In this document: piece after piece, positions 24,663-57,721 of the stretch
Layout of the letters: every line of letters starts with the position of its first letter
Numbering within the stretch: position 1 is the stretch's first letter
NCBI GenBank assembly: GCA_027492035.1
Contig: JAOZFT010000004.1
Coordinates: 113,929-177,928 of the forward strand
Direction: 5' to 3'
DNA: 64,000 nucleotides
Origin: Thermoproteota archaeon
GTDB lineage: Archaea > Korarchaeota > JAOZGF01 > JAOZFZ01
Notes under the pieces: generated by a model
What the model saw: the letters and a program-made list of their open reading frames with translations, nothing else
What the model was told of the DNA's origin: nothing
The model's database searches: none
Translations under genes and position numbers: made by a program

Positions 24663-25144
24663 ATAAATTTGTAGTCTGCTCAGGGATGAATGCAAAATAT
24701 TGATTCCTAGTTTTACTTAAACTCCTTCTAACAACGAGTATCGTCGGTACCTTCTCAAACTCGATGCTGTCAGCCTTTATCTCAGCTTTAAGAAAATCTC
24801 TAAGCTTCAACACATCAGTTCCATCATAGCTTCCTAAGCTCTGAAGCCTTAAACCGAAAAAGCCATCAACGCTATAGTAATCCTAGCTCTGGGTATAGCC
24901 ATCCTAATAATCTTATCCAACTCAGCTTTACCTGGAACCCTTTCGTCAGCTATAGTTTGGTGTCTCGTATTACTTTAGCAATATTAACCTTAAGCTTGAC
25001 ATCCAATCCGTTAAAAGAAAGCCAGGAACATAGGGCTTTCTTAAACCTAGCTACATATGAACCAGCCTTACCTTCCGATTCAAGCTCTCTAACGAAATCC
25101 ATAAACCTATCTCTAAAGAACTTAGTCCCAGCTACCTTAAGCAA
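24663..25144 (-). pseudogene. Tyrosine recombinase/integrase, frameshifted and C-terminally truncated remnant
   Basis: N-terminal SAM-like region (MLKVAGTKFFRDRFMDFVRELESEGKAGSYVARFKKALCSWL) and box I region (ITIALMAFS / GLRLQSLGSYDGTDV) appear in three successive frames; catalytic HxxR/Y region absent. Lower boundary approximate because the far end overlaps the ABC fragment antisense. Confidence 0.55.
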
Positions 25145-25356
25145 AGCCTCAGGATCAGTTTTATTCGATTCACAGTAAAGCCCTAGGTCCTAAGGCAAAC
25201 TGTAGCTGTAATGATGGATTTAGCTGCTAGGTTACCAAACCCACGCTTAACATCCTCATCCTCAAGGAGGTAAGAATACTTATTCGGCAACTCTTGTTGA
25301 GTTGAGTTAAAGGTTGAAACCGTGTTTAAAATTTAAGGGTTCACTTGAAAAGTTAG

Positions 25357-25481
25357 TGGGCCCGGCGGGATTTGAACCCGCGACCCTCGGGTTGCTCCTC
25401 CAAAGGGGAGTACTTCTTTGGGATTAAGAGCCCGGTGCTTTAGGCAAATGAGAGGTTTCTACCTTGCTGAGCTACGGGCCC
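25357..25481 (-). tRNA. tRNA-Lys(CUU) with two predicted introns (about 19 nt in the D-stem, about 32 nt in the anticodon loop)
   Basis: 7-bp acceptor GGGCCCG/CGGGCCC, T-arm GCGGG-UUCAAAU-CCCGC. Removing AACCUCUCAUUUGCCUAAA restores D-arm GCUC-AGCAAGGUA-GAGC; anticodon stem CCGGG with loop CUCUUAA after removing a hairpin-forming intron. Isotype from hand folding. Confidence 0.6.
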
Positions 25482-32439: not shown

Positions 32440-32526
32440 GGGCCCGTGGCCTAACATGGATAAGGCGTCGGCCTGCGGTTTTTAGAAGAAAGCCGGAGGA
32501 TGCGGGTTCAAATCCCGCCGGGCCCG
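32440..32526 (+). tRNA. tRNA-Arg(GCG) with 12-nt anticodon-loop intron
   Basis: Acceptor GGGCCCG/CGGGCCC, D-arm GCCU-AACAUGGAUA-AGGC, anticodon stem UCGGC/GCCGG with loop CUGCGG + intron UUUUUAGAAGAA, T-arm GCGGG-UUCAAAU-CCCGC. Confidence 0.75.
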
Positions 32527-36567: not shown

Positions 36568-36573
36568 ATTAAA

Positions 36574-36664
36574 TGGGCCGGGTGGGATTCGAACCCACGA
36601 CCTCCGCCTTTTTCCAAGGAACAAAACGTGAAGGCGACGTCATAACCATCTAGACCACCGGCCC
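36574..36664 (-). tRNA. tRNA-Val(CAC) with 17-nt anticodon-loop intron
   Basis: Acceptor GGGCCGG/CCGGCCC, anticodon stem UCGCC/GGCGG with loop UUCACG + intron UUUUGUUCCUUGGAAAA, T-arm GUGGG-UUCGAAU-CCCAC. Confidence 0.7.
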
Positions 36665-36796
36665 ATTAAGGTGGTTCTGAATTTTTGTAAAGAAAAGTTA
36701 AGTTACAATTTAAAAGCTTTTTTAGTTGGAATATAAATATAGTATTTTTTTACCTTTAATTTTGGGTTAAGAACTTGTTCGGGGCTGATTAATAAA

Positions 36797-46395: not shown

Positions 46396-46563
46396 GAATA
46401 TGAACCTGAAGTTTTGTAGTATTTATTTCTTTTGAACGATTAGAGTTAGAGAAATAACCAGCAAAGAACTTAGAACAATTATTTACCCCCCCTCCCCCAA
46501 AAAAACAACCCCACAATATAAAAAGTTGATAAAATGAAGAAATTTCAAGGAGGGGGTTGAGAC

Positions 46564-47751
46564 ATGGGAAGCAATTTTTTAACTTTAAAGGGGTGGCATT
46601 CACCCATTTTCAGGGATGAAACAAAACTTTACTTAGAGTATGTCCCTAAAGATCTTCCTCACCGAGAGGATACAATGAAAAAACTAACCTATTTATTTTG
46701 GCCAATTATTTCCTCTACTGGAAATTTTTCAGCTAGTGCCTGGATACATGGGGCTGTAGGAACAGGTAAAACCGCTGTTTCTAAGAAGTTTGGATTTCTC
46801 TTTGAGAAAATCAGTAAACAGAAATCATTTCTTTTAAAGTATATTCACATAAATTGTAAACAGAAAAGAACAGGCTCTAATGTGATTTTATCCATCTTGG
46901 ATAATTTAAACGTGACAGTGCCTTCTAGAGGACTTTCTTTTCAAGAATTAGCCTCAATACTTAAAAAAATTCTGTTCAAGAAGAAAAGATATATCCTTTT
47001 AGTTTTGGATGAGGCAGGTTATCTTTTGAAAAAGGAAGGATCCGACATTATTTACAGCCTTGCACGGCTAACAGAGGAAGAATTTAATCAGAGGCCTTTA
47101 TTCTCATTTATTTTTACCTCTAAACAAGGTAGAGATGCCTTTCTTCTAGATCAAAGTACAAGAAGTTCACTTGCACCAACTAAAATTCATTTACCAAAAT
47201 ACAATAAGAATGAGTTAAAAGATATACTAACTCTAAGAACTGAGGAAGCTTTAAGAAAGGGAGTGATAAAGGAGGAAGTAATAGATTTAATAGCAGAAAT
47301 TGCTTCTTCAAAAGGAGATGCTCGATATGCCATAGAGCTCTTGTGGAAAGCTGGTAAAGAAGCTGAAATGGAGGATTCAAAAGAAATACTTCCCTCTCAT
47401 GTCCACAAAGTTAATTTATCTATTATGGAACCTAGACAATATGAGGAGATAAATAACTTGCCGAGACATGAAAAGATGGTTTTGTTAGCGATCATAAAAG
47501 AAAATCTGAGTGGAGAGAGGAAATATGCAAGGATTAAAAGGATAGTGGAGAGGTACAGGGGCATTTGTAGAAAATATGGTGAAGAACCTAGGTCCTATAC
47601 TAGGGTTTGGCAATTCATAAAGGATTTACAGCACGCAGGGTTAATAGAAGTTAATAGGTTAAGTGAAGGTGAAAGAGGAACCTTAAAGATAAGGGTTACC
47701 CATGAAGAACTAAACAGTTTGGAGGGAGTAATAAAGGGGCAACTTTGCTAA
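46564..47751 (+). CDS. cdc6: Orc1/Cdc6 replication initiator
   Basis: Walker A GAVGTGKTAV, Walker B LLVLDEAGYL, C-terminal winged helix; 395 aa. Confidence 0.9.
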   Translation: MGSNFLTLKGWHSPIFRDETKLYLEYVPKDLPHREDTMKKLTYLFWPIISSTGNFSASAWIHGAVGTGKTAVSKKFGFLFEKISKQKSFLLKYIHINCKQKRTGSNVILSILDNLNVTVPSRGLSFQELASILKKILFKKKRYILLVLDEAGYLLKKEGSDIIYSLARLTEEEFNQRPLFSFIFTSKQGRDAFLLDQSTRSSLAPTKIHLPKYNKNELKDILTLRTEEALRKGVIKEEVIDLIAEIASSKGDARYAIELLWKAGKEAEMEDSKEILPSHVHKVNLSIMEPRQYEEINNLPRHEKMVLLAIIKENLSGERKYARIKRIVERYRGICRKYGEEPRSYTRVWQFIKDLQHAGLIEVNRLSEGERGTLKIRVTHEELNSLEGVIKGQLC

Positions 47752-48062
47752 AATCTACGGAGAGGTGTTTTCTAGTGCCTACTCTCCCACAAAAAATTAG
47801 TTTAGAGGAGGTATTCTCAACAAAGGCCCGAGTACGAATTATTAAATTGCTTATTTCAGAGGGAGAGATGAACATTACCCAGTTAACTAGAAAAACATGT
47901 TTAAATCACAAAATAGTTTCTTCAAACATTAAAGTTCTGTCAGAGAAAGGAATAATCTCTACAGAAAAAATAGGAAGAATTAGAACTTGCAAAATAAATA
48001 AATCAAACCCAAGAGCTAAATTATTAGCTAAATTTATTTCAGAATGGCAAAAAAGGCTATGA
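47745..48062 (+). CDS. Winged-helix (ArsR-like) transcription regulator
   Basis: EEVFSTKARVRIIKLLISEGEMNITQLTRKTCLNHKIVSSNIKVLSEKGII; overlaps the cdc6 stop. Confidence 0.5.
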   Translation: MLKSTERCFLVPTLPQKISLEEVFSTKARVRIIKLLISEGEMNITQLTRKTCLNHKIVSSNIKVLSEKGIISTEKIGRIRTCKINKSNPRAKLLAKFISEWQKRL

Positions 48063-49253
48063 AAGATGTATTAACTTTTTAACTTCATCTCTACCTAGTG
48101 AAAGGTAATTTATGACTTCTTTCCTATATTTACTCTGTTTCTGAACAAGCAATTTAATGAAAGGCAAATACTCAGAAATTACTTTTTTGCTTGAAACATG
48201 ACATTTGCTTGAAATCTTAGCCACTAATTCTTTTTCTTCACCCCTATCTTTCCTAGAAGAACTGATCTTCTTCAAGTAGGTGGGGAATTTAAAGGGGATG
48301 AATTTTTTCCTTTTTCCTACTGAAACAAAAGCCACCGTACCAAACATTAAATCAAAAAAATACTTTAGAAGAGACCAGTTTCCTTCCTTCTTTATTCTTC
48401 CAAGAAAAATGTCGGCTTTTGAGAGTTTCTCATAAGCCATGACTAAACCACGAGGTTCATTATAGATGAGAGGGAGGTTTTCAGCAACCCATTGAAAGAG
48501 AAGAGGGTAGTCTATTTCCAATTCTTCAAACACCCTTAGACCTTCTTCGAAACTTTTAGCCCTTAATAATTTATTAATTGCGGCAAAAACATCTATTTTA
48601 ATGTCACGTGCATGAATTTGCGTTTTATAGAGGAGAATACTTTGTAAATCGTTTAAAGCAGCCCTTACATCACCTTTTGCATTCTCCGCTATTGCATTAA
48701 GAATTTTATTATCTACATGACCCCCTTCTAACTGAACTACCCTTTTTAAGTAATGGAGGATAGTGGGTTTAGGTATTCTTCGAAATTTAATGGTTTCACT
48801 TTTCAAACGGATATCCCTAAGTCCCAAAGCGTAAGCGTTATTTGCAATCAACACTATTGGATATTTAGATTTCTCAATGACATGGATAAGGAAGGAAATG
48901 AATCTTGGAAAAAGGCTTCTTAACCCTTCTACTTCATCAATTAATATTATTTTTCCCTGGGAACCAAATAAACTAGTTGACGTCAAAGTGGAGCTCAGTG
49001 CTCTACAAAGCTCCTCAAAAGAGGAAATGGATACGGGGTCGATTTTTACTAGCTCAAAACCTAGTTCTTTGGCCTCTAACTCAACTAGAAGCGTTTTACC
49101 TGAACCTGAAGGCCCGAAAAGCAATGCAGGCTTACTAGTTTCTCCTTTAATAAATTTTTTAAGCCAAGTATTGAATTTTTCAGTAGCTTCTTTTTGATCC
49201 AAGTACTCAGATAAACTTTTGGGTTTGTATTTTTCAATGAAAAGAGTGGACAT
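48057..49253 (-). CDS. rfcL: Replication factor C, large subunit
   Basis: EKYKPKSLSEYLDQ then Walker A GPSGSGKT, Walker B LIDEVEG; 398 aa; adjacent to the small subunit. Confidence 0.9.
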   Translation of the reverse strand: MSTLFIEKYKPKSLSEYLDQKEATEKFNTWLKKFIKGETSKPALLFGPSGSGKTLLVELEAKELGFELVKIDPVSISSFEELCRALSSTLTSTSLFGSQGKIILIDEVEGLRSLFPRFISFLIHVIEKSKYPIVLIANNAYALGLRDIRLKSETIKFRRIPKPTILHYLKRVVQLEGGHVDNKILNAIAENAKGDVRAALNDLQSILLYKTQIHARDIKIDVFAAINKLLRAKSFEEGLRVFEELEIDYPLLFQWVAENLPLIYNEPRGLVMAYEKLSKADIFLGRIKKEGNWSLLKYFFDLMFGTVAFVSVGKRKKFIPFKFPTYLKKISSSRKDRGEEKELVAKISSKCHVSSKKVISEYLPFIKLLVQKQSKYRKEVINYLSLGRDEVKKLIHLS

Positions 49254-49259
49254 TCCTGA

Positions 49260-50222
49260 TCACACAGCACCGAAAAGGGAAAATTTAGCTAGAAGAGCAC
49301 TTAGCTGGACATCTGGATGTGCTCCTTCACTTAACCTAAAGTCAACTTCACCTACGTAGTCTAGTAAGGCCGTCTTTCTTTCTTCTTCTATATCCATGTT
49401 AAGAATTTCTCTATGAACTTGTTGCAAAATGTCAGAAGCAGAAACTCCATACCTTGTCATCAAATTGTAAAGGGTATCACGTGCCTCCTTGAATTTACCT
49501 TCTAAAGAGAGAGTCAACATTTTCCTTATTTCAGCAGGGTGAGCCCTGCCAGCTACCTTAAAGACTATTTCTTCAGTAATCTCTTCATTAAGAGCTGCAG
49601 AGGTTTGTAATAAATTTATTGCCCTCCTTAGGTCGCCTTCAGTGATGTAAACTATTGCATCAAGCCCCTTTCCAGAAATCGAAACCTTCTCCTTCTCAGC
49701 AATATAGAGGAGTCTTTCTTTAATCTTCTCTTCACTGATTCTTTGAAACCTGAAAATAGCACATCGTGACTGTATAGGTTCAATTATTTTAGAAGAGTAA
49801 TTACAAATTAATATGAATCTGCAATTGTGTGAAAAAATCTCCATTGTTCGCCTTAATGCCTGTTGAGCATCGCTGGTTAAATTATCAGCTTCATCTAGAC
49901 AAATTATTTTATAGGGGAACTCTCCTATTGGAGATGTTCTTGCAAAATCCTTAACTCTGGTTCTAATTGTCTCTATACCCCTTTCATCTGATGCATTCAA
50001 CTCAATAAAGTTGGATCTAAAACTCCCTGGACCGAACAATTCTTTAGCTAAACAAATCGCAGCAGTAGTTTTTCCGGTTCCTGGAGGACCTGCAAATAAC
50101 ATATGAGGAATTGATTTAGTAGCTACGAACCTTTTTAACCTTTCAACTGTCTCCTCTTGGTCAGTAATTTCTTTTAAAGTCTGAGGCCTATATTTCTCGG
50201 TCCAGATGCCATTAGCGCTCAT
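49260..50222 (-). CDS. rfcS: Replication factor C, small subunit
   Basis: WTEKYRP, GPPGTGKT, CLDEAD, SRC motifs; start taken at the Met preceding WTEKYRP (ORF track starts 27 nt upstream). Confidence 0.9.
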   Translation of the reverse strand: MSANGIWTEKYRPQTLKEITDQEETVERLKRFVATKSIPHMLFAGPPGTGKTTAAICLAKELFGPGSFRSNFIELNASDERGIETIRTRVKDFARTSPIGEFPYKIICLDEADNLTSDAQQALRRTMEIFSHNCRFILICNYSSKIIEPIQSRCAIFRFQRISEEKIKERLLYIAEKEKVSISGKGLDAIVYITEGDLRRAINLLQTSAALNEEITEEIVFKVAGRAHPAEIRKMLTLSLEGKFKEARDTLYNLMTRYGVSASDILQQVHREILNMDIEEERKTALLDYVGEVDFRLSEGAHPDVQLSALLAKFSLFGAV

Positions 50223-50331
50223 CAAAACAACCTCTAAACCCTGAACCAAAAATTTAAAATACCTTTCAAAAACAATGAACTACTATATTTATTTAATGCC
50301 CCTTATAAAAAATAAATGCTCAGCTATAACA

Positions 50332-50363
50332 AAAAAGTTTTCTTCTTAAGAGAAGAAAACTTT
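50332..50363. promoter_or_regulatory. Perfect inverted repeat (14-bp arms, 4-nt centre) in the rfcS / GINS-mcm divergent intergenic region
   Basis: AAAAGTTTTCTTCT-TAAG-AGAAGAAAACTTTT; followed by tandem AGAAAACAG AGAAAACAG at 50370-50387. Confidence 0.5.
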
Positions 50364-50407
50364 TCACGGCAGAAAACAGAGAAAACAGAAGAAAAAGCAA
50401 GAGGGAT

Positions 50408-50947
50408 ATGGAAGGAGAAGAGTGGGAGTTGGAAACAAAAACTAAGAAAAGAATAAAGAATCAATATAATCTCTTAAATGATGCCCGAGTAAAATCAAAA
50501 AGGGGCTTCTACCTACTGAATGAGGAAGGAAACAAGGAAGAAATTAAAAAAGATGAAATTATTAATGTACCGGTTTGGCAAGCTGAATTCTTGATAAGGG
50601 AAAACCTTGCAGAACCCATATATGAGAAAATAAATAATGAAACCTTAATGAGGATTCTTTCACTTGAGCAACTGAATACGTTTTCGTTGTATGAATTACC
50701 AAAAGATTTTTACCTTAACTGCCTACATACATTGGAACAATTAAAAAAGAGTAAGGATAAAGCAGCAAATGACTTCCTGAACCGACTAGAAAACTTAATA
50801 ACGCTTAGGTTACAGAAGATACTTAAGATGGCGGCTAAGAACTTAGAAAAAAGAAAAGAAAGGGAAAAGATGACAGCTGAGGAAGAACTGCTGTATGATT
50901 GGGTAAGGAAATTAGTAAATGATTGGGTTAAATCATTAATAGTTTAA
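50408..50947 (+). CDS. GINS subunit (Gins23-like), putative
   Basis: 179-aa helical protein directly upstream of and co-oriented with mcm, as in the Sulfolobus gins23-mcm pair; assignment by position and size only. Confidence 0.4.
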   Translation: MEGEEWELETKTKKRIKNQYNLLNDARVKSKRGFYLLNEEGNKEEIKKDEIINVPVWQAEFLIRENLAEPIYEKINNETLMRILSLEQLNTFSLYELPKDFYLNCLHTLEQLKKSKDKAANDFLNRLENLITLRLQKILKMAAKNLEKRKEREKMTAEEELLYDWVRKLVNDWVKSLIV

Positions 50948-50964
50948 GTAACTTAGGGAGAGGT

Positions 50965-53046
50965 ATGGAATTGCAACAGCTAAAAATATCACAAGAAACT
51001 TTAATCAAGACATTCCAAGATTTTCTGCTTAGCTTTCAAAGTGGAGGCAGAAAAGGATATTATGAACAACTTAAAGGTTTACCTGAAACAGGAGGAATTT
51101 CGATAAACGTTAATTACAGCGATGTTTTAATGTACAACCCAGAAATAGCGAATACTTTATTAGAGAAACCAGAAAAAATAATTAAGTCAGCATCTGAAGC
51201 ACTTAAAAGAACAATCTCCCAAATAGACCCTGAATATGCTAGATATAAGAAAAGATTTTACGTGAGGTTTCATAATTTACCCTATAAATCAGCTATAAGA
51301 GATCTACGTGCAAGTCAGATAGGGAAACTAGTGGAAATAGAGGGAGTGGTAACGCAGGCCTCAGCAATTCAAGCCCAGATGATAACAGCAACATATGAAT
51401 GTAGGAGTTGCTCCTCTATTTTTGAGGTTCCAATAGATGAAGATAACCCAAGTTTCCAAAAAAGTGTTTTAATTTGCCCAAATTGTGGAAGAAAAGGCCT
51501 ACACAAGCTACAGCTGGAAAACTGTACTTTCATGGACTGGCAAAGTATAAGGCTGCAGGAGGACCATGAAAACCTTCCTCCAGGTAGGTTACCTCGATCA
51601 ATATTATGTATTCTAAAGGAAGATTTAGCTGATAAAGTTAGGCCGGGGGACCATGTGCAACTTGTAGGTATACTAAAACCTATAAGGTTAATCCGCAAAG
51701 GGGAAGTAAGTAAGCTAAATTATTCCATTTATTTAGAGGGAAACTATGTAAAAGCATTAGGTGAAGAAGTAGAGACTGAGGAATTAAGTGAAGAAGACAT
51801 TGAAAAGATAAAATCTTTAGCAAAAGACCCAAATATAGCAGAAAGAATAGTAAACTCCATTTCTCCTTCGATATATGGCTTAAGCGAAGTTAAAAAAGCA
51901 ATAACTTTACTGCTTTTTGGTGGAAACCCAAAACATTTAGAAGGAGGAGGAAAAATAAGAGGGGATCTAAACATATTGTTAGTAGGTGATCCTGGAACTG
52001 GCAAAAGCCAAATATTAAAAAATGTAGCGAGAGTAGCACCAAGAGGATTATACACTACGGGTAAAGGATCTACAGCTGCAGGGTTAACGGCAGCTGTAGT
52101 TAAGGATTCATTGACAGGGAATTGGAGTCTGGAAGCAGGGGCTTTAGTTTTAGCTGATAAAGGAGTTGCATGTATAGATGAGTTTGATAAAATGAGCAAC
52201 AATGACAGAGTTGCAATTCATGAGGCTATGGAACAACAAACTATTTCGATAGCAAAGGCAGGCATAGTTGCGACTTTAAACGCTAGAACATCAATATTAG
52301 CGGCAGCCAATCCTGCTTGGGGCAGGTATGATGAAGATAGAAGCCCAGCTGAGAACATAAATTTGCCAGTTACGATACTGTCAAGATTTGATTTGATATT
52401 TCTAATTAAAGATGCGCCTGAGGCTCCAAAGGATAAAAATGTAGCCGAATTCATCCTTAAACTTCACGCTGGCAGAGGGGAAAATAATCAAGACTTGATA
52501 GAGCCTGTTCTCCTGAAAAAGTATATCCTTTACGCAAGAAAAAACATAAAGCCCCGTTTGACAAGGCAAGCTTTAGGAAGAATAAAACAGTTTTATTTAA
52601 AATTAAGGAAGGAAAGCGAAGAAAAACAAGTGATTGCGATAACGCCTAGGCAATTAGAGGCAGTAATTAGAATGAGTGAAGCAAGGGCGAAAATGGAACT
52701 TAGAAAACAAGTAAAAGAAACAGATGCTGAATTCGCAATCAATTTAATGGAAGAGTTCCTTAACCAAATAGGCTACGAAAGGAAAGAGGGTGCATACGAT
52801 ATAGATAGAGTAATCACAGGAGTGTCCTTCTCAAAAAGAAAAAGAATATTAGCCCTTGAATCTTTAATAAAGGAACTTTATGAAGACAATGGAAAAAGGC
52901 CTGTTGAAATATCAACCGTTATAGATACTTTTAAAGAGAAACATGGAATACAGGAGACATTAATAAGGGAAGATCTTGCCAGACTAAAGAAGGAGGGAAG
53001 AGTACTCTTTCCAAAAGAGGGATATGTGATACCTCTCGGATCCTAA
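50965..53046 (+). CDS. mcm: MCM replicative helicase
   Basis: Zn finger CRSC...CPNCG, Walker A GDPGTGKSQ, Walker B CIDEFDKM, arginine finger SRFDL; 693 aa, no intein. Confidence 0.95.
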   Translation: MELQQLKISQETLIKTFQDFLLSFQSGGRKGYYEQLKGLPETGGISINVNYSDVLMYNPEIANTLLEKPEKIIKSASEALKRTISQIDPEYARYKKRFYVRFHNLPYKSAIRDLRASQIGKLVEIEGVVTQASAIQAQMITATYECRSCSSIFEVPIDEDNPSFQKSVLICPNCGRKGLHKLQLENCTFMDWQSIRLQEDHENLPPGRLPRSILCILKEDLADKVRPGDHVQLVGILKPIRLIRKGEVSKLNYSIYLEGNYVKALGEEVETEELSEEDIEKIKSLAKDPNIAERIVNSISPSIYGLSEVKKAITLLLFGGNPKHLEGGGKIRGDLNILLVGDPGTGKSQILKNVARVAPRGLYTTGKGSTAAGLTAAVVKDSLTGNWSLEAGALVLADKGVACIDEFDKMSNNDRVAIHEAMEQQTISIAKAGIVATLNARTSILAAANPAWGRYDEDRSPAENINLPVTILSRFDLIFLIKDAPEAPKDKNVAEFILKLHAGRGENNQDLIEPVLLKKYILYARKNIKPRLTRQALGRIKQFYLKLRKESEEKQVIAITPRQLEAVIRMSEARAKMELRKQVKETDAEFAINLMEEFLNQIGYERKEGAYDIDRVITGVSFSKRKRILALESLIKELYEDNGKRPVEISTVIDTFKEKHGIQETLIREDLARLKKEGRVLFPKEGYVIPLGS

Positions 53047-53051
53047 GGTGT

Positions 53052-55625
53052 GTAAAGATAAAGGAACCTAATCTCCCGGAAAAAGTTGCACAAGCAGCTG
53101 CGAAATTAGGCATAAGGGCCCTTTTCCCGCCTCAAATAAGAGCTATAAAGAAGGGAATTCTAAAGGGTAAAAATTTCGTCATAGCTACACCTACAGCTAG
53201 TGGAAAAACATTTATAGCATTAGCTGCGATAATAACCAAGTTAAATAAACACAGTGATAAAGCTATTTATTTAGCACCTCTACGGAGTATAGCATCGGAA
53301 AAATACAGTGAATTCAAAGAATTATTTGATGAATTAGGGTTAAGGACGGCTATTTCCACCGGTGACTTCGATCTTTCACCCGACTGGTTGAAAGGATATA
53401 ACATAATTATTTCCACGAATGAAAAAATTGACTCAATCATTAGACACAACCCAAAGTGGTTACAAGACGTAAAGGTAGTTGTAGTGGATGAAGTGCACCT
53501 TATTGACAGTTTGAAACGTGGCCCAATAATCGAACTCTTAATCGCTAAACTAAGGAAGAAAATAGAAAACCCACAAATTTTGTGCTTAAGTGCAACAATT
53601 AAAAATGTGAAAGAACTAGCGGAATGGATTAATGGAACATATATAAGCAGCAACTGGAGACCCGTAGAACTCAGGGAGGGAGTATTTTATGATTACAAAA
53701 TCTATTGGAGCAATGGAACAAAAAACGTAAGGAAAATTAAGGGGGAGAAATACACAGACCTCTGTCTAGATACATTAAAGGAGAAAGGGCAGGTACTTGT
53801 TTTTTTAAACACCAGAAAAAACGCAGAAAACACCGCAGAAAAAGTAAAGAACGCTATTTCCAACACTCTTACTGAAGAAGAGAAAAAGGAACTTAAAAAA
53901 ACAGCTAGAAGGATTATTTCAGAAGGAGAACAAACTAAACTTTCGAAAAAACTAGCTAACCTAATAATGAGTGGAGTTGCATATCATCACGCAGGTTTAA
54001 GGCATATTCATCGTGCAATAGTAGAGGAAGCATTCAGAAGTAATTTTCTAAAAGTTATTTGTGCAACCCCCACCTTAGCTGCAGGAGTTAACCTCCCAGC
54101 TAGGAGGGTAATAATAGGGCAAATTCATAGATTTTCAAAGGGAAAAGGAAGTCAACCTATTTCTGTAATGGAGTACAAACAAATGTGTCTGCCGTATGAC
54201 ACGCTGATCTTAACAGAAGAAGGGGAGATAGAGATAGGGGAGATAGTTGAAAAGAGAACTCCAAAAAAAGTTGTCAGTTTAGATCTTGAAACCGGTAAAG
54301 TAACCTTGAGCAAGATATTATCCTTTTTTGAAAGGAAAACTAATTTTTTGGTTAAACTCTTTTTAACTACTGGCTTAAACCTAGAACTGACACCTAACCA
54401 TCCATTGCTGGCAGTTAAAAACGGAAGGTACGGATGGTTACTTGCAAAAAGAATACGGAGAGGCGATGTTGTATTTACGTTAGATAAAGGGCTAATGAGA
54501 AAGATAAAAGTGAAAAAGGTAAAAAGAATAAACTTAGATAGCCCGATCACTGTCTTCAATTTGAAAACAGAAAAGGAAACCTTTTTTGCGGAAAGAATTG
54601 TATTGCATAATTGTGGACGGGCAGGTAGACCAAAGTATGATGAAATAGGGGAGGCGGTTCTTATAGCAAACACTGAAGAAAGAAAGGAAAAGTACTTAAA
54701 AAAGTACGTGAACTCGAAACCAGAAAAAATAAAATCGAAACTGGTTGATTCACCTGCCCTAAGAGCGCAGATTCTGTCACTAATAACTTCTAATTTGGCA
54801 TTCACTCCTGAAGATATGAGGGACATATTTAAGTTGACTTTTTATTACAGCCAAACTAAAGAGAAAAAGAAAATAGAGAGAAAGATTAAAGAAACATTAG
54901 ATTTCTTGTTACTTAACGGATTTATAAAGAAAACAGGGGACTTGCTTCATGCTACAAAGTTAGGAAAAAGGGTTTCTTTACTTTATTTAGATCCTCTTAC
55001 AGCAATAATTTTACTTAAAGGAATGGAAAAACTAGAAAAGAAGAAAGTCACTCCTCTTTCATTACTAACACTGATCTGCCTCACTCCAGACATGGAAACA
55101 CTAAGTTACCGTAAGGCATTCTATCACGAAATGAACAACTTACTTAAAGAAAGAGAGGAAGAACTACCCCTAGAAGTTTATTATACTTCAACCTATTACT
55201 TGCTCGATCAAGACTGGCTGCAAGCAATATGGACTGCAAATATGCTTGAGAAATGGATAAATGAAGAAAATGAAGACACTTTAAACTTTAAGTACGGAGT
55301 TGGCCCAGGAGACATAAGAAGAGTAAATGAAAGTGCTGATTGGCTCCTCTACTCCATGCAGGAATTAGCCAAAACGTTTAAACATGAGAATTACATTCCT
55401 TTAATTGAAGAACTAAGGCAAAGAATAAAATATGGAGTGAAGAAGGAACTAATTGAATTAACTACCATAAAGGGTATTGGAAGGGTAAGAGCCAGAGTCC
55501 TCTACAATAAGGGATACAAACGTTTAGAAGATTTGAGTAAGGCGTCTATAAATGAACTTGCTAAACTTCCAGCTATAGGCGAAGCCTTAGCAAAAAGTAT
55601 TAAAGAACAACTAAATGAGGAATAG
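53052..55625 (+). CDS. hel308: Hel308 (Hjm) Ski2-like helicase, containing a mini-intein; true start codon unresolved
   Basis: Walker A ATPTASGKT, DEVH box VVVVDEVHL, motif VI QM-CGRAGRP interrupted by intein, C-terminal HhH (IKGIGRVRARVL). Homologous N-terminus lies upstream of the ORF-track start (53388) with no ATG/GTG/TTG in frame back to the stop at 52905; 53052 is a frame-consistent placeholder. Confidence 0.8.
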   Translation, partial: VKIKEPNLPEKVAQAAAKLGIRALFPPQIRAIKKGILKGKNFVIATPTASGKTFIALAAIITKLNKHSDKAIYLAPLRSIASEKYSEFKELFDELGLRTAISTGDFDLSPDWLKGYNIIISTNEKIDSIIRHNPKWLQDVKVVVVDEVHLIDSLKRGPIIELLIAKLRKKIENPQILCLSATIKNVKELAEWINGTYISSNWRPVELREGVFYDYKIYWSNGTKNVRKIKGEKYTDLCLDTLKEKGQVLVFLNTRKNAENTAEKVKNAISNTLTEEEKKELKKTARRIISEGEQTKLSKKLANLIMSGVAYHHAGLRHIHRAIVEEAFRSNFLKVICATPTLAAGVNLPARRVIIGQIHRFSKGKGSQPISVMEYKQMCLPYDTLILTEEGEIEIGEIVEKRTPKKVVSLDLETGKVTLSKILSFFERKTNFLVKLFLTTGLNLELTPNHPLLAVKNGRYGWLLAKRIRRGDVVFTLDKGLMRKIKVKKVKRINLDSPITVFNLKTEKETFFAERIVLHNCGRAGRPKYDEIGEAVLIANTEERKEKYLKKYVNSKPEKIKSKLVDSPALRAQILSLITSNLAFTPEDMRDIFKLTFYYSQTKEKKKIERKIKETLDFLLLNGFIKKTGDLLHATKLGKRVSLLYLDPLTAIILLKGMEKLEKKKVTPLSLLTLICLTPDMETLSYRKAFYHEMNNLLKEREEELPLEVYYTSTYYLLDQDWLQAIWTANMLEKWINEENEDTLNFKYGVGPGDIRRVNESADWLLYSMQELAKTFKHENYIPLIEELRQRIKYGVKKELIELTTIKGIGRVRARVLYNKGYKRLEDLSKASINELAKLPAIGEALAKSIKEQLNEE
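54186..54611 (+). other. Mini-intein (142 aa, no homing-endonuclease domain) in Hel308 motif VI
   Basis: Begins with Cys (CLPYDTLILTEEG, block A), contains TPNHPLL (block B TxxH), ends FFAERIVLHN followed by Cys +1; flanking exteins YKQM / CGRAGRP reconstitute motif VI. Confidence 0.8.
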
Positions 55626-55655
55626 TGGAAGGTAAGGGTGAGTTGGTGGTAGCAT

Positions 55656-57059
55656 ATGTCTGTTTGCCCAATTGACACCGGAAGATATGGAAGAGAACCC
55701 TTAAAGAAAATTTTTACTGAAGAGGGACGTATAGAAAGGCTGCTAAAAGTTGAAGCCACCATAGCCAAAACACATGCTGAAATAGGAATCATACCTAAGG
55801 AAGCAGCACAAGAGATAGAGAAGAAGGCTTCCTTAAAATATGTAAAAATAGAGAGGATAAAGGAGATAGAAAAAGAAATACACCATGAAACAATGGCGAT
55901 GGTTCTTGCGTTAGCGGAACAATGTGGGAAATATGGGGGATACGTGCATTTAGGTTTAACAAGTAGTGATGCTTTAGATACTGCACTAGCAATCCAAATA
56001 AAGGATGCATTAAAAATAATTGAAGGCAAGCTAGAGAAATTGATTCTTAAACTAGTGGAGAAAGCTTTAAAGTATAAAAGTTTACCTATGATCGGAAGAA
56101 CCCATGGACAGCATGCAATACCTATAACTCTCGGTTTTAAATTTGCCCTGTTCGCTTCAGAGTTTCATAGACATTATGAAAGATTACAAGAAATAAAATC
56201 TCGAATTTTAGTTGGGAAAATCTCCGGTGCAACAGGTACGTTTGCAGCTTTGGGTAAAAAGGGCATCTTGATACAAAAGAGAACGTTAGAGAAATTGGGG
56301 CTGGGTGAACCCTTAATTACGACACAAATAATACAGAGAGATAGACATGCTGAACTAATTTTTCTGCTTGCATTAATAGGTACTTCTTTAGATAAGTTAG
56401 CAACAGAGATAAGGAACTTACAAAGGACAGAGATAAGTGAAGTCTCTGAGCCATTCAATAAACAGCAGATAGGTTCCAGCACAATGCCTCAGAAAAGAAA
56501 CCCTACGAAATCAGAGAGAATAACAAGTTTATCCCGACTTTTAAGATCAATGGTTTACCCAAGTCTAGAAAATATTGTCACGTGGCATGAAAGAGACCTA
56601 ACCAACTCAGCAAATGAAAGATTTACAGTGCCTGAGTCATTTATTTTGCTAGACGAGATGTTGACTGAGATGATTGAAATAATAGAGAAAATCAAGGTTA
56701 ACAAAGAAAAAATAAAGGAAAATCTTCACTTAACAAAAGGGTTAGTGATGTCGGAAAGAATAATGATGGCATTAACCAAAAAGGGGATGGGTAGACAGGA
56801 GGCCCACCAAACGTTGCGAAAAATAGCACTCAAATCGGTAAATGAAAACAAAGAATTCAGAATTACTCTTCTCCAAGACAAAGAAATAAAGAAGAAATTA
56901 ACCAGGAAAGAAATAGATGAACTTTTGAACCCTGAAACTTACACAGGTTTAGCAGAGAAAGTAATTGAAAGGACAATTCAGGCAATAAACAACTCGTTAA
57001 ACAAAAAAAGAGGGGAGGGGTTGGGAGAAGCTGATGCTATTCTTTTTAAACGCCTCTAA
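55656..57059 (+). CDS. purB: Adenylosuccinate lyase
   Basis: Fumarate-lyase family; GLTSSDALDTA and the SSTMPQKRNP signature; 467 aa. Confidence 0.9.
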   Translation: MSVCPIDTGRYGREPLKKIFTEEGRIERLLKVEATIAKTHAEIGIIPKEAAQEIEKKASLKYVKIERIKEIEKEIHHETMAMVLALAEQCGKYGGYVHLGLTSSDALDTALAIQIKDALKIIEGKLEKLILKLVEKALKYKSLPMIGRTHGQHAIPITLGFKFALFASEFHRHYERLQEIKSRILVGKISGATGTFAALGKKGILIQKRTLEKLGLGEPLITTQIIQRDRHAELIFLLALIGTSLDKLATEIRNLQRTEISEVSEPFNKQQIGSSTMPQKRNPTKSERITSLSRLLRSMVYPSLENIVTWHERDLTNSANERFTVPESFILLDEMLTEMIEIIEKIKVNKEKIKENLHLTKGLVMSERIMMALTKKGMGRQEAHQTLRKIALKSVNENKEFRITLLQDKEIKKKLTRKEIDELLNPETYTGLAEKVIERTIQAINNSLNKKRGEGLGEADAILFKRL

Positions 57060-57521: not shown

Positions 57522-57640
57522 GGGGCCGTAGTCCAGCCAGAGGGAAGCCTAGATATGGGCTTTTCAGGCAAGGTAGGATGCCTGCCTGGGGAAATTAGCC
57601 GGAACGCAGGTGGTCCCGGGTTCAAATCCCGGCGGCCCCA
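57522..57640 (+). tRNA. tRNA-Pro(GGG) with two predicted introns (about 31 nt in the D-loop, about 13 nt in the anticodon loop); CCA encoded (to 57643)
   Basis: Acceptor GGGGCCG/CGGCCCC, D-stem GUCC/GGAU with insertion in the loop, anticodon stem CCUGC/GCAGG with loop CUGGGG + short intron, T-arm CCGGG-UUCAAAU-CCCGG, then A-CCA in the genome. Confidence 0.6.
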
Positions 57641-57721
57641 CCATTCCCAGCTTTTAAAATGTAGAGACGTAAAGAAGGGAATAAGTATTTTTTGAGTATA
57701 ACTCTTTGGAGAAAAGAAACT

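Follow-up and report, generated by a model that had tools for sequence, protein, structure and literature searches.

A hel308 helicase gene without a canonical start codon downstream of mcm in a korarchaeal genome, and its candidate AUA initiation site

The mcm–hel308 locus and the hel308 reading frame

We analysed a 64,000-nucleotide stretch of contig JAOZFT010000004.1 from a Thermoproteota archaeon of the Korarchaeota lineage (assembly GCA_027492035.1, positions 113,929 to 177,928 of the forward strand; hereafter, the window), in which the helicase gene hel308 (hjm) directly follows mcm. The upstream gene of this operon, mcm (50965–53046, plus strand), encodes 693 amino acids according to the list of open reading frames (ORFs) and their translations and ends with the TAA at 53044–53046; an identical copy in a second assembly of the species (L001) contains the Pfam domains MCM_N, MCM_OB, MCM and MCM_lid. 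The hel308 frame, whose codons begin at positions divisible by three, is open from 52935 to the stop codon at 55623–55625. A preliminary description of this DNA had the frame open from 52908, which the in-frame TAA at 52932–52934 (plus strand) corrects. The same description had reported that the frame contains no ATG, GTG or TTG before the TTG at 53388–53390 (plus strand) and that the conserved N-terminus, including Walker A, is encoded upstream of that codon; the ORF list and the sequence bear this out, with 151 open codons preceding the TTG. The N-terminus encoded there includes KIKEPNLPEKV, the Q motif FPPQ (53124–53135, plus strand) and Walker A, or motif I, ATPTASGKT (53184–53210, plus strand), both of which lie 5′ of every canonical start. 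Motif II of the DExH type, DEVH, follows at 53487–53498. Public gene calls begin at TTG 53388 (the 745-residue P0121, which is left without Q motif and Walker A) or at the GTG at 53484–53486 (plus strand; the 713-residue P0001 and P0122). The coding sequence that we propose, with matches in Pfam and the Protein Data Bank (PDB), spans 53058–55625 on the plus strand and encodes 855 amino acids including an intein.

The missing start codon sets hel308 apart as the sole outlier among the 59 long ORFs of the window. At most 51 codons precede the first canonical start codon in the 58 other ORFs, and in most of them fewer than 20. ATG, GTG and TTG make up 4.0% of the remaining hel308 codons, and at this frequency a run of 110 coding codons without any of them has a probability of about 0.011. 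Because hel308 alone lacks a nearby canonical start, the peculiarity is specific to this gene and does not reflect a genome-wide change of code. We considered a genome-wide peculiarity of the code or of start-codon use and rejected it: the 58 other ORFs have canonical codons nearby, and ATA codons inside the gene encode conserved isoleucines.

Motifs, domains and closest structures all identify the predicted product as Hel308/Hjm, a Ski2-like superfamily 2 (SF2) DNA helicase. Pfam finds DEAD (1.3e-35), Helicase_C, HTH_61 (1.5e-10), Helicase_dom4_arc (4.7e-34) and HHH_5 (4e-12), and the C-terminal winged-helix, ratchet (domain 4) and helix-hairpin-helix (domain 5) regions are thus all present. 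The best PDB matches, obtained with the N-terminal 380 residues, are 2va8 from S. solfataricus (3.4e-93), 2zj2, the Hjm of P. furiosus (1.8e-92), and 2p6r from A. fulgidus (3.1e-86). Domain order and motifs are like those of these three proteins, and the N-terminus aligns within two residues of Met1 of P. furiosus Hjm. Two features distinguish the protein from the solved structures: the lack of a canonical start and a mini-intein in motif VI. The mini-intein (54186–54611, plus strand; 142 amino acids; Pfam Intein_splicing, 3.5e-10) has Cys1, a terminal His-Asn and Cys at +1, and it splits the QMxGRAGRP motif VI of RecA domain 2 (EYKQM, then C...VLHN, then CGRAGRP). Inteins occupy the same site, following QM and starting with C, in loci L004, L005, L006 and L012, and none is present in the sister species or in L003, two relatives described below. 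In S. islandicus, Hjm/Hel308 is essential (PMC4080772), which fits a need for the full-length protein.

The start region and its conservation

The junction between the two genes reads TAAGGTG-tgtaaag-ATA. It contains a Shine-Dalgarno (SD)-like AGGTG (53046–53050, plus strand), a 5-mer of the archaeal SD consensus GGAGGTGATC that overlaps the last base of the mcm stop codon, and an ATA (53058–53060, plus strand) that begins 7 nt after GGTG and is our proposed near-cognate initiator. Judged from a multiple alignment, together with about 100 surveyed loci, the Hel308 start column lies 25 codons before the first proline of PPQ. In the window, this column, which holds the Met, GTG or TTG start of the homologues, corresponds to the GTA at 53052–53054 (plus strand), only 1 nt after GGTG, and the ATA lies two codons further downstream; residue 4 of the query, the isoleucine encoded by this ATA, aligns with residue 3 of P. 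furiosus Hjm (2zj2). Both codons fall within the range of about 53049–53060 in which the preliminary description had expected the start. The GTA is probably a decayed GTG and could serve as an alternative, weak initiator.

Only 11 nt separate the mcm stop codon from the proposed start, which leaves no room for a promoter, and the same gap measures 11–29 nt, by our own count, in the six lineages with a measured junction. GGTG, GAGG or GGAG is found 4–10 nt upstream of many starts in the window, from which we conclude that the organism uses SD-led initiation. An Rfam scan of the window found three tRNAs and no rRNA, so the anti-SD sequence cannot be read there.

The junction is the same in three assemblies of the species. 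Two further assemblies, GCA_027491625.1 (L001) and GCA_027491775.1 (L025), are 99.94% and 99.93% identical to the window and differ from it at 6–7 positions, including a homopolymer indel; their mcm–hel308 junctions match it base for base. The closest other species is represented by two strains, L002 (GCA_027492105.1) and L026 (GCA_027491455.1), which differ by 55 mismatches in 6.6 kb (99.2% identity). Its Hel308 shares 59% identity with that of the window over the N-terminal 380 amino acids (57% in alignment A1). From the mcm stop codon to the conserved LP codons, this sister species has no ATG, GTG or TTG in any frame, and its start region consists of GGGGAGGG, 7 nt and then ATT-AAA-ATA; the public gene call begins at an internal ATG, "MVIATPTASGKT". 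Between the two strains, hel308 carries 11 synonymous differences (481 sites) and 2 nonsynonymous ones (1703 sites), and mcm shows the same. These counts and sites give a dN/dS of about 0.05 for hel308; the gene is therefore under strong purifying selection and is not a pseudogene. A third relative, L003, has an ordinary ATG start. Two sibling accessions of the same batch, JAOZFL01 and JAOZFZ01, are named marine hydrothermal Korarchaeota clades (PMC12787533), and the window probably derives from this group as well. The GTDB species set does not include its genome; the best hit in that set reaches 50%.

The arrangement recurs beyond these two species. Several of the best 120 database relatives have gene calls that are short at the N-terminus; we fetched six such loci, and a genome scan added a seventh (L005, from Thermofilum sp. 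ex4484_15). These further loci come from other projects, with JGI, Logan and ENA data among the sources. None of the seven has a canonical start codon at the homologous N-terminus, and each carries a near-cognate codon behind an SD motif; a comparison of orthologous junctions was one of the checks suggested in the preliminary description. Their next canonical codon lies 5–21 codons further inward, within the conserved fold. Counting the window species, the sister species (L002/L026), L027, L110, L111, L028, L112, L029 and L005 as nine lineages, a 5–7-nt SD match precedes an ATA, ATT, ATC or CTG at or near the homologous start column in 9/9.

Four of these loci, L027, L110, L028 and L111, form one clade whose members are 60–80% identical and all have ATA. 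L027 reads TAG-t-GGAGGTG-caaacaa-ATA TTA GTC GAT GAA CTG CCC (ILVDELPIP; spacer 7 nt), and L110 reads TAG-c-GGAGGG-tcaa-TAA-ATA CTA GTT GAA GAA CTC CCA (ILVEELPIP; spacer 7 nt), with an in-frame TAA abutting the ATA. L111 has GGAGGG-ttacaaaa-ATA GAA ATT GCC GAG CTT CCC (IEIAELPLP; spacer 8 nt), and L028 has TAA-t-GGAGGG-aagag-ATA ATT CGA (IIRVRELPIP). L005 and L112 are 56–61% identical to this clade. In L112, GAGGT-AG, whose TAG is an in-frame stop codon, is followed directly by ATT ATT ATC, encoding IIIALKIYNLPLP; in L005, GGGGGAGGGA-gc is followed by ATT AAG GTA AGC GAA TTG (IKVSELPLS), so that a TTG occurs five codons after the ATT. L029, about 50% identical to everything else, has GAGAGGT-ctgttagt-CTG AGA ATT (LRIQDLPID; spacer 8 nt). 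The distance from the SD match to the proposed start is 4–8 nt in the other lineages, and in L002, L027, L028, L110 and L111 the ATA or ATT is placed as in the window with respect to the SD; measured from the position equivalent to GGAGG, the spacer is 8–9 nt in 8/9 lineages by our own count.

As a background set, we scanned metagenomes with an 11-sequence profile, up to a limit of 600 candidate stretches, and sampled 80 loci at 43–49% identity; none of these 80 has a non-canonical hel308 start. Judged from these sequences, the trait is uncommon and restricted to certain lineages, as the uniformly canonical sample indicates, yet it is recurrent. Non-canonical hel308 loci have an SD match of at least 5 bases no more than 20 nt from the proposed start in 9/9 cases, compared with 7/86 for canonical ones. 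Canonical starts also lean towards weaker codons: the 86 dereplicated loci use ATG 22 times, GTG 35 times and TTG 29 times (26% ATG), in a survey sample (L004–L109) that is phylogenetically redundant. A rough control with mcm at the same loci, whose N-termini align poorly, gave 16 ATG, 3 GTG and 10 TTG (55% ATG). This pattern suggests that hel308 may be under general selection for weak initiation.

Short out-of-frame ORFs of 7–14 codons span the hel308 start region in the window (53048–53071), L027 (2922–2951) and L028 (2940–2984). They open with a GTG or ATG that overlaps or abuts the mcm stop codon (TAAgGTG, TAGTG and TAATG, respectively), and they are absent in L002, L026, L005 and L029. 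The one in the window, GTG TGT AAA GAT AAA GGA ACC TAA (plus strand), is opened by the GTG inside the SD motif and is probably incidental. As a group, these ORFs might compete with hel308 initiation or might be incidental.

Candidate AUA initiation and competing explanations

We consider it likely that hel308 is functional, that it shares a transcript with mcm, and that its translation begins by SD-led initiation at the near-cognate AUA at 53058–53060. The short gap without promoter room and the SD motif lead us to infer initiation at this codon, probably fed by ribosomes terminating on mcm, and a non-canonical initiator was among the options named in the preliminary description. In the proposed mechanism, the anti-SD end of 16S rRNA would pair with AGGTG at 53046–53050, overlapping the mcm stop codon, and this pairing would set the AUA, 7 nt downstream, in the P site. 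The initiator Met-tRNA would then pair with AUA despite a mismatch at the third (wobble) position, and methionine would presumably be inserted. The near-cognate codon should be weak in itself; initiation would become possible through the strong SD together with a supply of ribosomes that complete mcm 11 nt upstream. Hel308 would consequently be scarce and its output tied to MCM synthesis, and low, mcm-coupled expression may be the purpose of the arrangement. The shared mRNA and the 11-nt gap make a physical coupling of mcm and hel308 likely.

A stricter form of this idea is more speculative, and we regard it as doubtful: AUA, AUU or CUG might be a conditional start, open solely to ribosomes fresh from termination on mcm and retained by the SD that overlaps the stop codon, and Hel308 synthesis would then follow MCM synthesis strictly, at a fixed low ratio. 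If true, several archaeal lineages would have evolved or retained a dedicated means of setting the stoichiometry of two helicases of the replication fork. In its most extreme version, the open −1 overlap in this species and its sister may even allow an MCM–Hel308 fusion at low frequency.

Several points weigh against initiation at the AUA. The start is placed at this codon by reading the sequence, and we know of no biochemically shown AUA or AUU initiation in Thermoproteota or Korarchaeota. The exact initiator is ambiguous, given that the ancestral start column corresponds to the GTA two codons upstream, and the choice of near-cognate codon in L028 and L112 was guided partly by the SD spacing. 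The 3′ end of the organism's 16S rRNA lies outside the window, and the SD was judged by the archaeal consensus. The SD enrichment is confounded by lineage, SD use being variable among the sampled archaea. Finally, the non-canonical cases were picked via truncated gene calls, and the sample of 80 metagenome loci yielded none.

The choice of codon within the junction is where the closest alternatives lie. Initiation at another non-canonical codon, mainly the GUA at 53052–53054 and also the AAG at 53055, is improbable in our estimate. In its favour, the GTA falls in the column where about 86 homologues (N-terminal sequence VKI..LPIP) have their GTG, TTG or ATG, and it aligns with Met1 of the P. 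furiosus protein Hjm. With two mismatches to AUG, however, GUA would initiate at near-background levels, and this GTA sits 1 nt from GGTG where the other lineages have 4–8 nt. The GTG at 53048 has also to be considered, since it opens a seven-codon ORF in the −1 frame relative to hel308, and a ribosome starting there after the mcm stop codon could reach the hel308 frame by a +1 shift within five codons, for example at AAA-G; L027 (GTG overlapping TAG) and L028 (TAATG) are similar. We give this route hardly any weight. A start of this kind is missing from all frames in the sister species, in L005 and in L029, the GTG of the window and of L027 belongs to the GGTG of the SD with the frame set by the 7-nt spacing, and a prfB-like shift site is absent. 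In L027 and L028, moreover, the short ORF crosses the conserved ELPIP codons, which require the hel308 frame.

Production of Hel308 as a fusion to MCM by recoding, either through a −1 frameshift in the last 37 mcm codons or through stop-codon readthrough where the genes are in frame, appears very improbable. In this species and its sister, hel308 does lie in the −1 frame of mcm, and that frame reaches back 37 and 31 mcm codons, respectively, before meeting a stop; in L027, L028, L111 and L112 the two genes share a frame with a stop codon between them. Against the coupling by frameshift that the preliminary description had considered, neither species has an X XXY YYZ heptamer or an A-site run in the overlap (52930–53046 in the window; L002), and the predicted fold of 53010–53110 is unexceptional (z = −0.99, with pseudoknots outside the model). 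No single recoding route fits all lineages, four of which have hel308 in the −1 frame of mcm and another four in frame 0. In L110, a TAA of the hel308 frame separates the ATA from the mcm stop codon, and L112 has an extra in-frame TAG. The −1 frame inside mcm (RETWNTGDINKGRS...) resembles no Hel308, and the SD, needless for a fusion, is kept in all nine lineages. We attach next to no credence to a sequencing or assembly error, another option of the preliminary description, or to a decaying pseudogene. A single base change, from ATA to ATG or from GTA to GTG, would restore a canonical start, and the species-level assemblies all stem from one accession batch. Yet three assemblies with differences at other sites, a homopolymer indel among them, agree fully at the junction, the two strains of the sister species also lack a canonical start, and the arrangement recurs in loci from JGI, Logan and ENA. 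A pseudogene would not be expected to keep, as hel308 does, an intact frame, all helicase motifs and its intein, together with the excess of synonymous over nonsynonymous differences seen in the sister species. Equally remote is a true start at TTG 53388 or GTG 53484, the first canonical codons and the ones chosen by gene finders in the public calls. Such a start would yield a truncated helicase, deprived of Q motif, Walker A and most of RecA domain 1, all of them hallmarks of SF2 helicases. Comparison with homologues and solved structures shows in-frame conservation of the 110 codons upstream, and neither start is preceded by an SD-like motif.

Genomic surroundings, public gene calls and known parallels

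The two helicase genes belong to an island of replication genes at 46564–57059, which comprises orc1/cdc6 (46564–47751), a small HTH gene, the large and small RFC genes on the minus strand, a GINS-like gene (50408–50947), mcm, hel308 and the gene for adenylosuccinate lyase (55656–57059). The order GINS–mcm–hel308 is common to L002, L003, L027, L028, L110 and L111. Upstream of orc1/cdc6, the intergenic stretch 46423–46560 is rich in A/T and C and has a weak inverted repeat at 46409–46471; its run of C at 46486 is one C longer in the window than in L001. This orc1/cdc6-adjacent stretch is a possible replication origin. The second-largest gap before a canonical start in the window occurs at 24804–25178 (plus strand), where the first TTG comes only after 51 of 125 open codons; the ORF may be spurious or may have an unusual start of its own, and it adjoins an intron-containing tRNA at 25357–25481. 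The tRNAs found by Rfam, at 25357–25481 (minus strand), 32440–32526 (plus strand) and 36574–36664 (minus strand), are 87–125 nt long and apparently contain introns. ARAGORN reports one tRNA by default; with intron search, its anticodon calls conflict with those of the default run (Arg-CCT versus Phe at 36573–36665), and a fourth candidate appears at 57522–57643.

In public databases, standard gene finders have removed between 9 and about 140 residues from the N-termini of these Hel308 proteins. The truncated public calls include P0001, P0121, P0122, P0003, P0123, P0033, P0041, P0043, P0075, P0078 and P0084, which start at internal TTG, GTG or ATG codons; P0079 is a further truncated call. In those of 713, 745 and 687 residues, the Q motif is missing, as is Walker A in whole or in part. 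When uncultured archaea are surveyed for comparative or metabolic purposes, such calls can make hel308 seem defective. A recurrent AUA, AUU or CUG start on an often essential gene would also offer a concrete case for testing the use of near-cognate codons by archaeal ribosomes: archaea, which initiate translation with a eukaryote-like machinery, have very few experimentally supported starts other than AUG, GUG and UUG. The same case poses the question of why a fork-repair helicase would be kept scarce relative to MCM. Our literature search found no report of a non-canonical hel308 start, of conserved archaeal AUA or AUU starts, or of toxicity from Hel308 overexpression.

The nearest parallels come from bacteria, where the AUU start codons of infC, pcnB and ebpA throttle expression. 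Of these genes, infC encodes IF3, pcnB encodes poly(A) polymerase I, and ebpA is from Enterococcus faecalis (papers: PMC4447247, PMC3561954, PMC1865079). The hel308 arrangement resembles these cases in having a near-cognate AUH codon in a conserved protein, an SD upstream and a rare codon that is kept among relatives. As with ebpA, annotation tends to favour a downstream canonical codon, and, if our reading is correct, attenuated expression would be a further shared effect. It differs in that the organism is an archaeon, in which start codons are checked by aIF1, aIF1A and aIF2 rather than by IF3, and in that the codon is AUA instead of AUU. Furthermore, hel308 is a DNA helicase gene located 11 nt after mcm and has no evident autoregulatory loop.

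Among archaea, ribosome profiling of H. volcanii found that about 30% of the putative alternative initiation sites defined by harringtonine are near-cognate, and the authors set these sites aside as possible false positives (PMC7261190). The likeness to hel308 would be that archaeal ribosomes can initiate at near-cognate codons. The H. volcanii sites are alternative or internal ones in a mostly leaderless transcriptome, whereas the AUA proposed here would be the sole, SD-led start of a conserved gene. Translational coupling by termination–reinitiation between adjacent genes of prokaryotic operons was reportedly described by Huber et al. in 2019. The mcm–hel308 junction is similar in that the upstream stop codon and the downstream SD and start lie within 11–29 nt of each other in the window and the sister species, with the SD overlapping the stop codon. 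The known coupling cases involve canonical starts, unlike the junction described here, for which the geometry of stop codon, SD and near-cognate codon suggests coupling.

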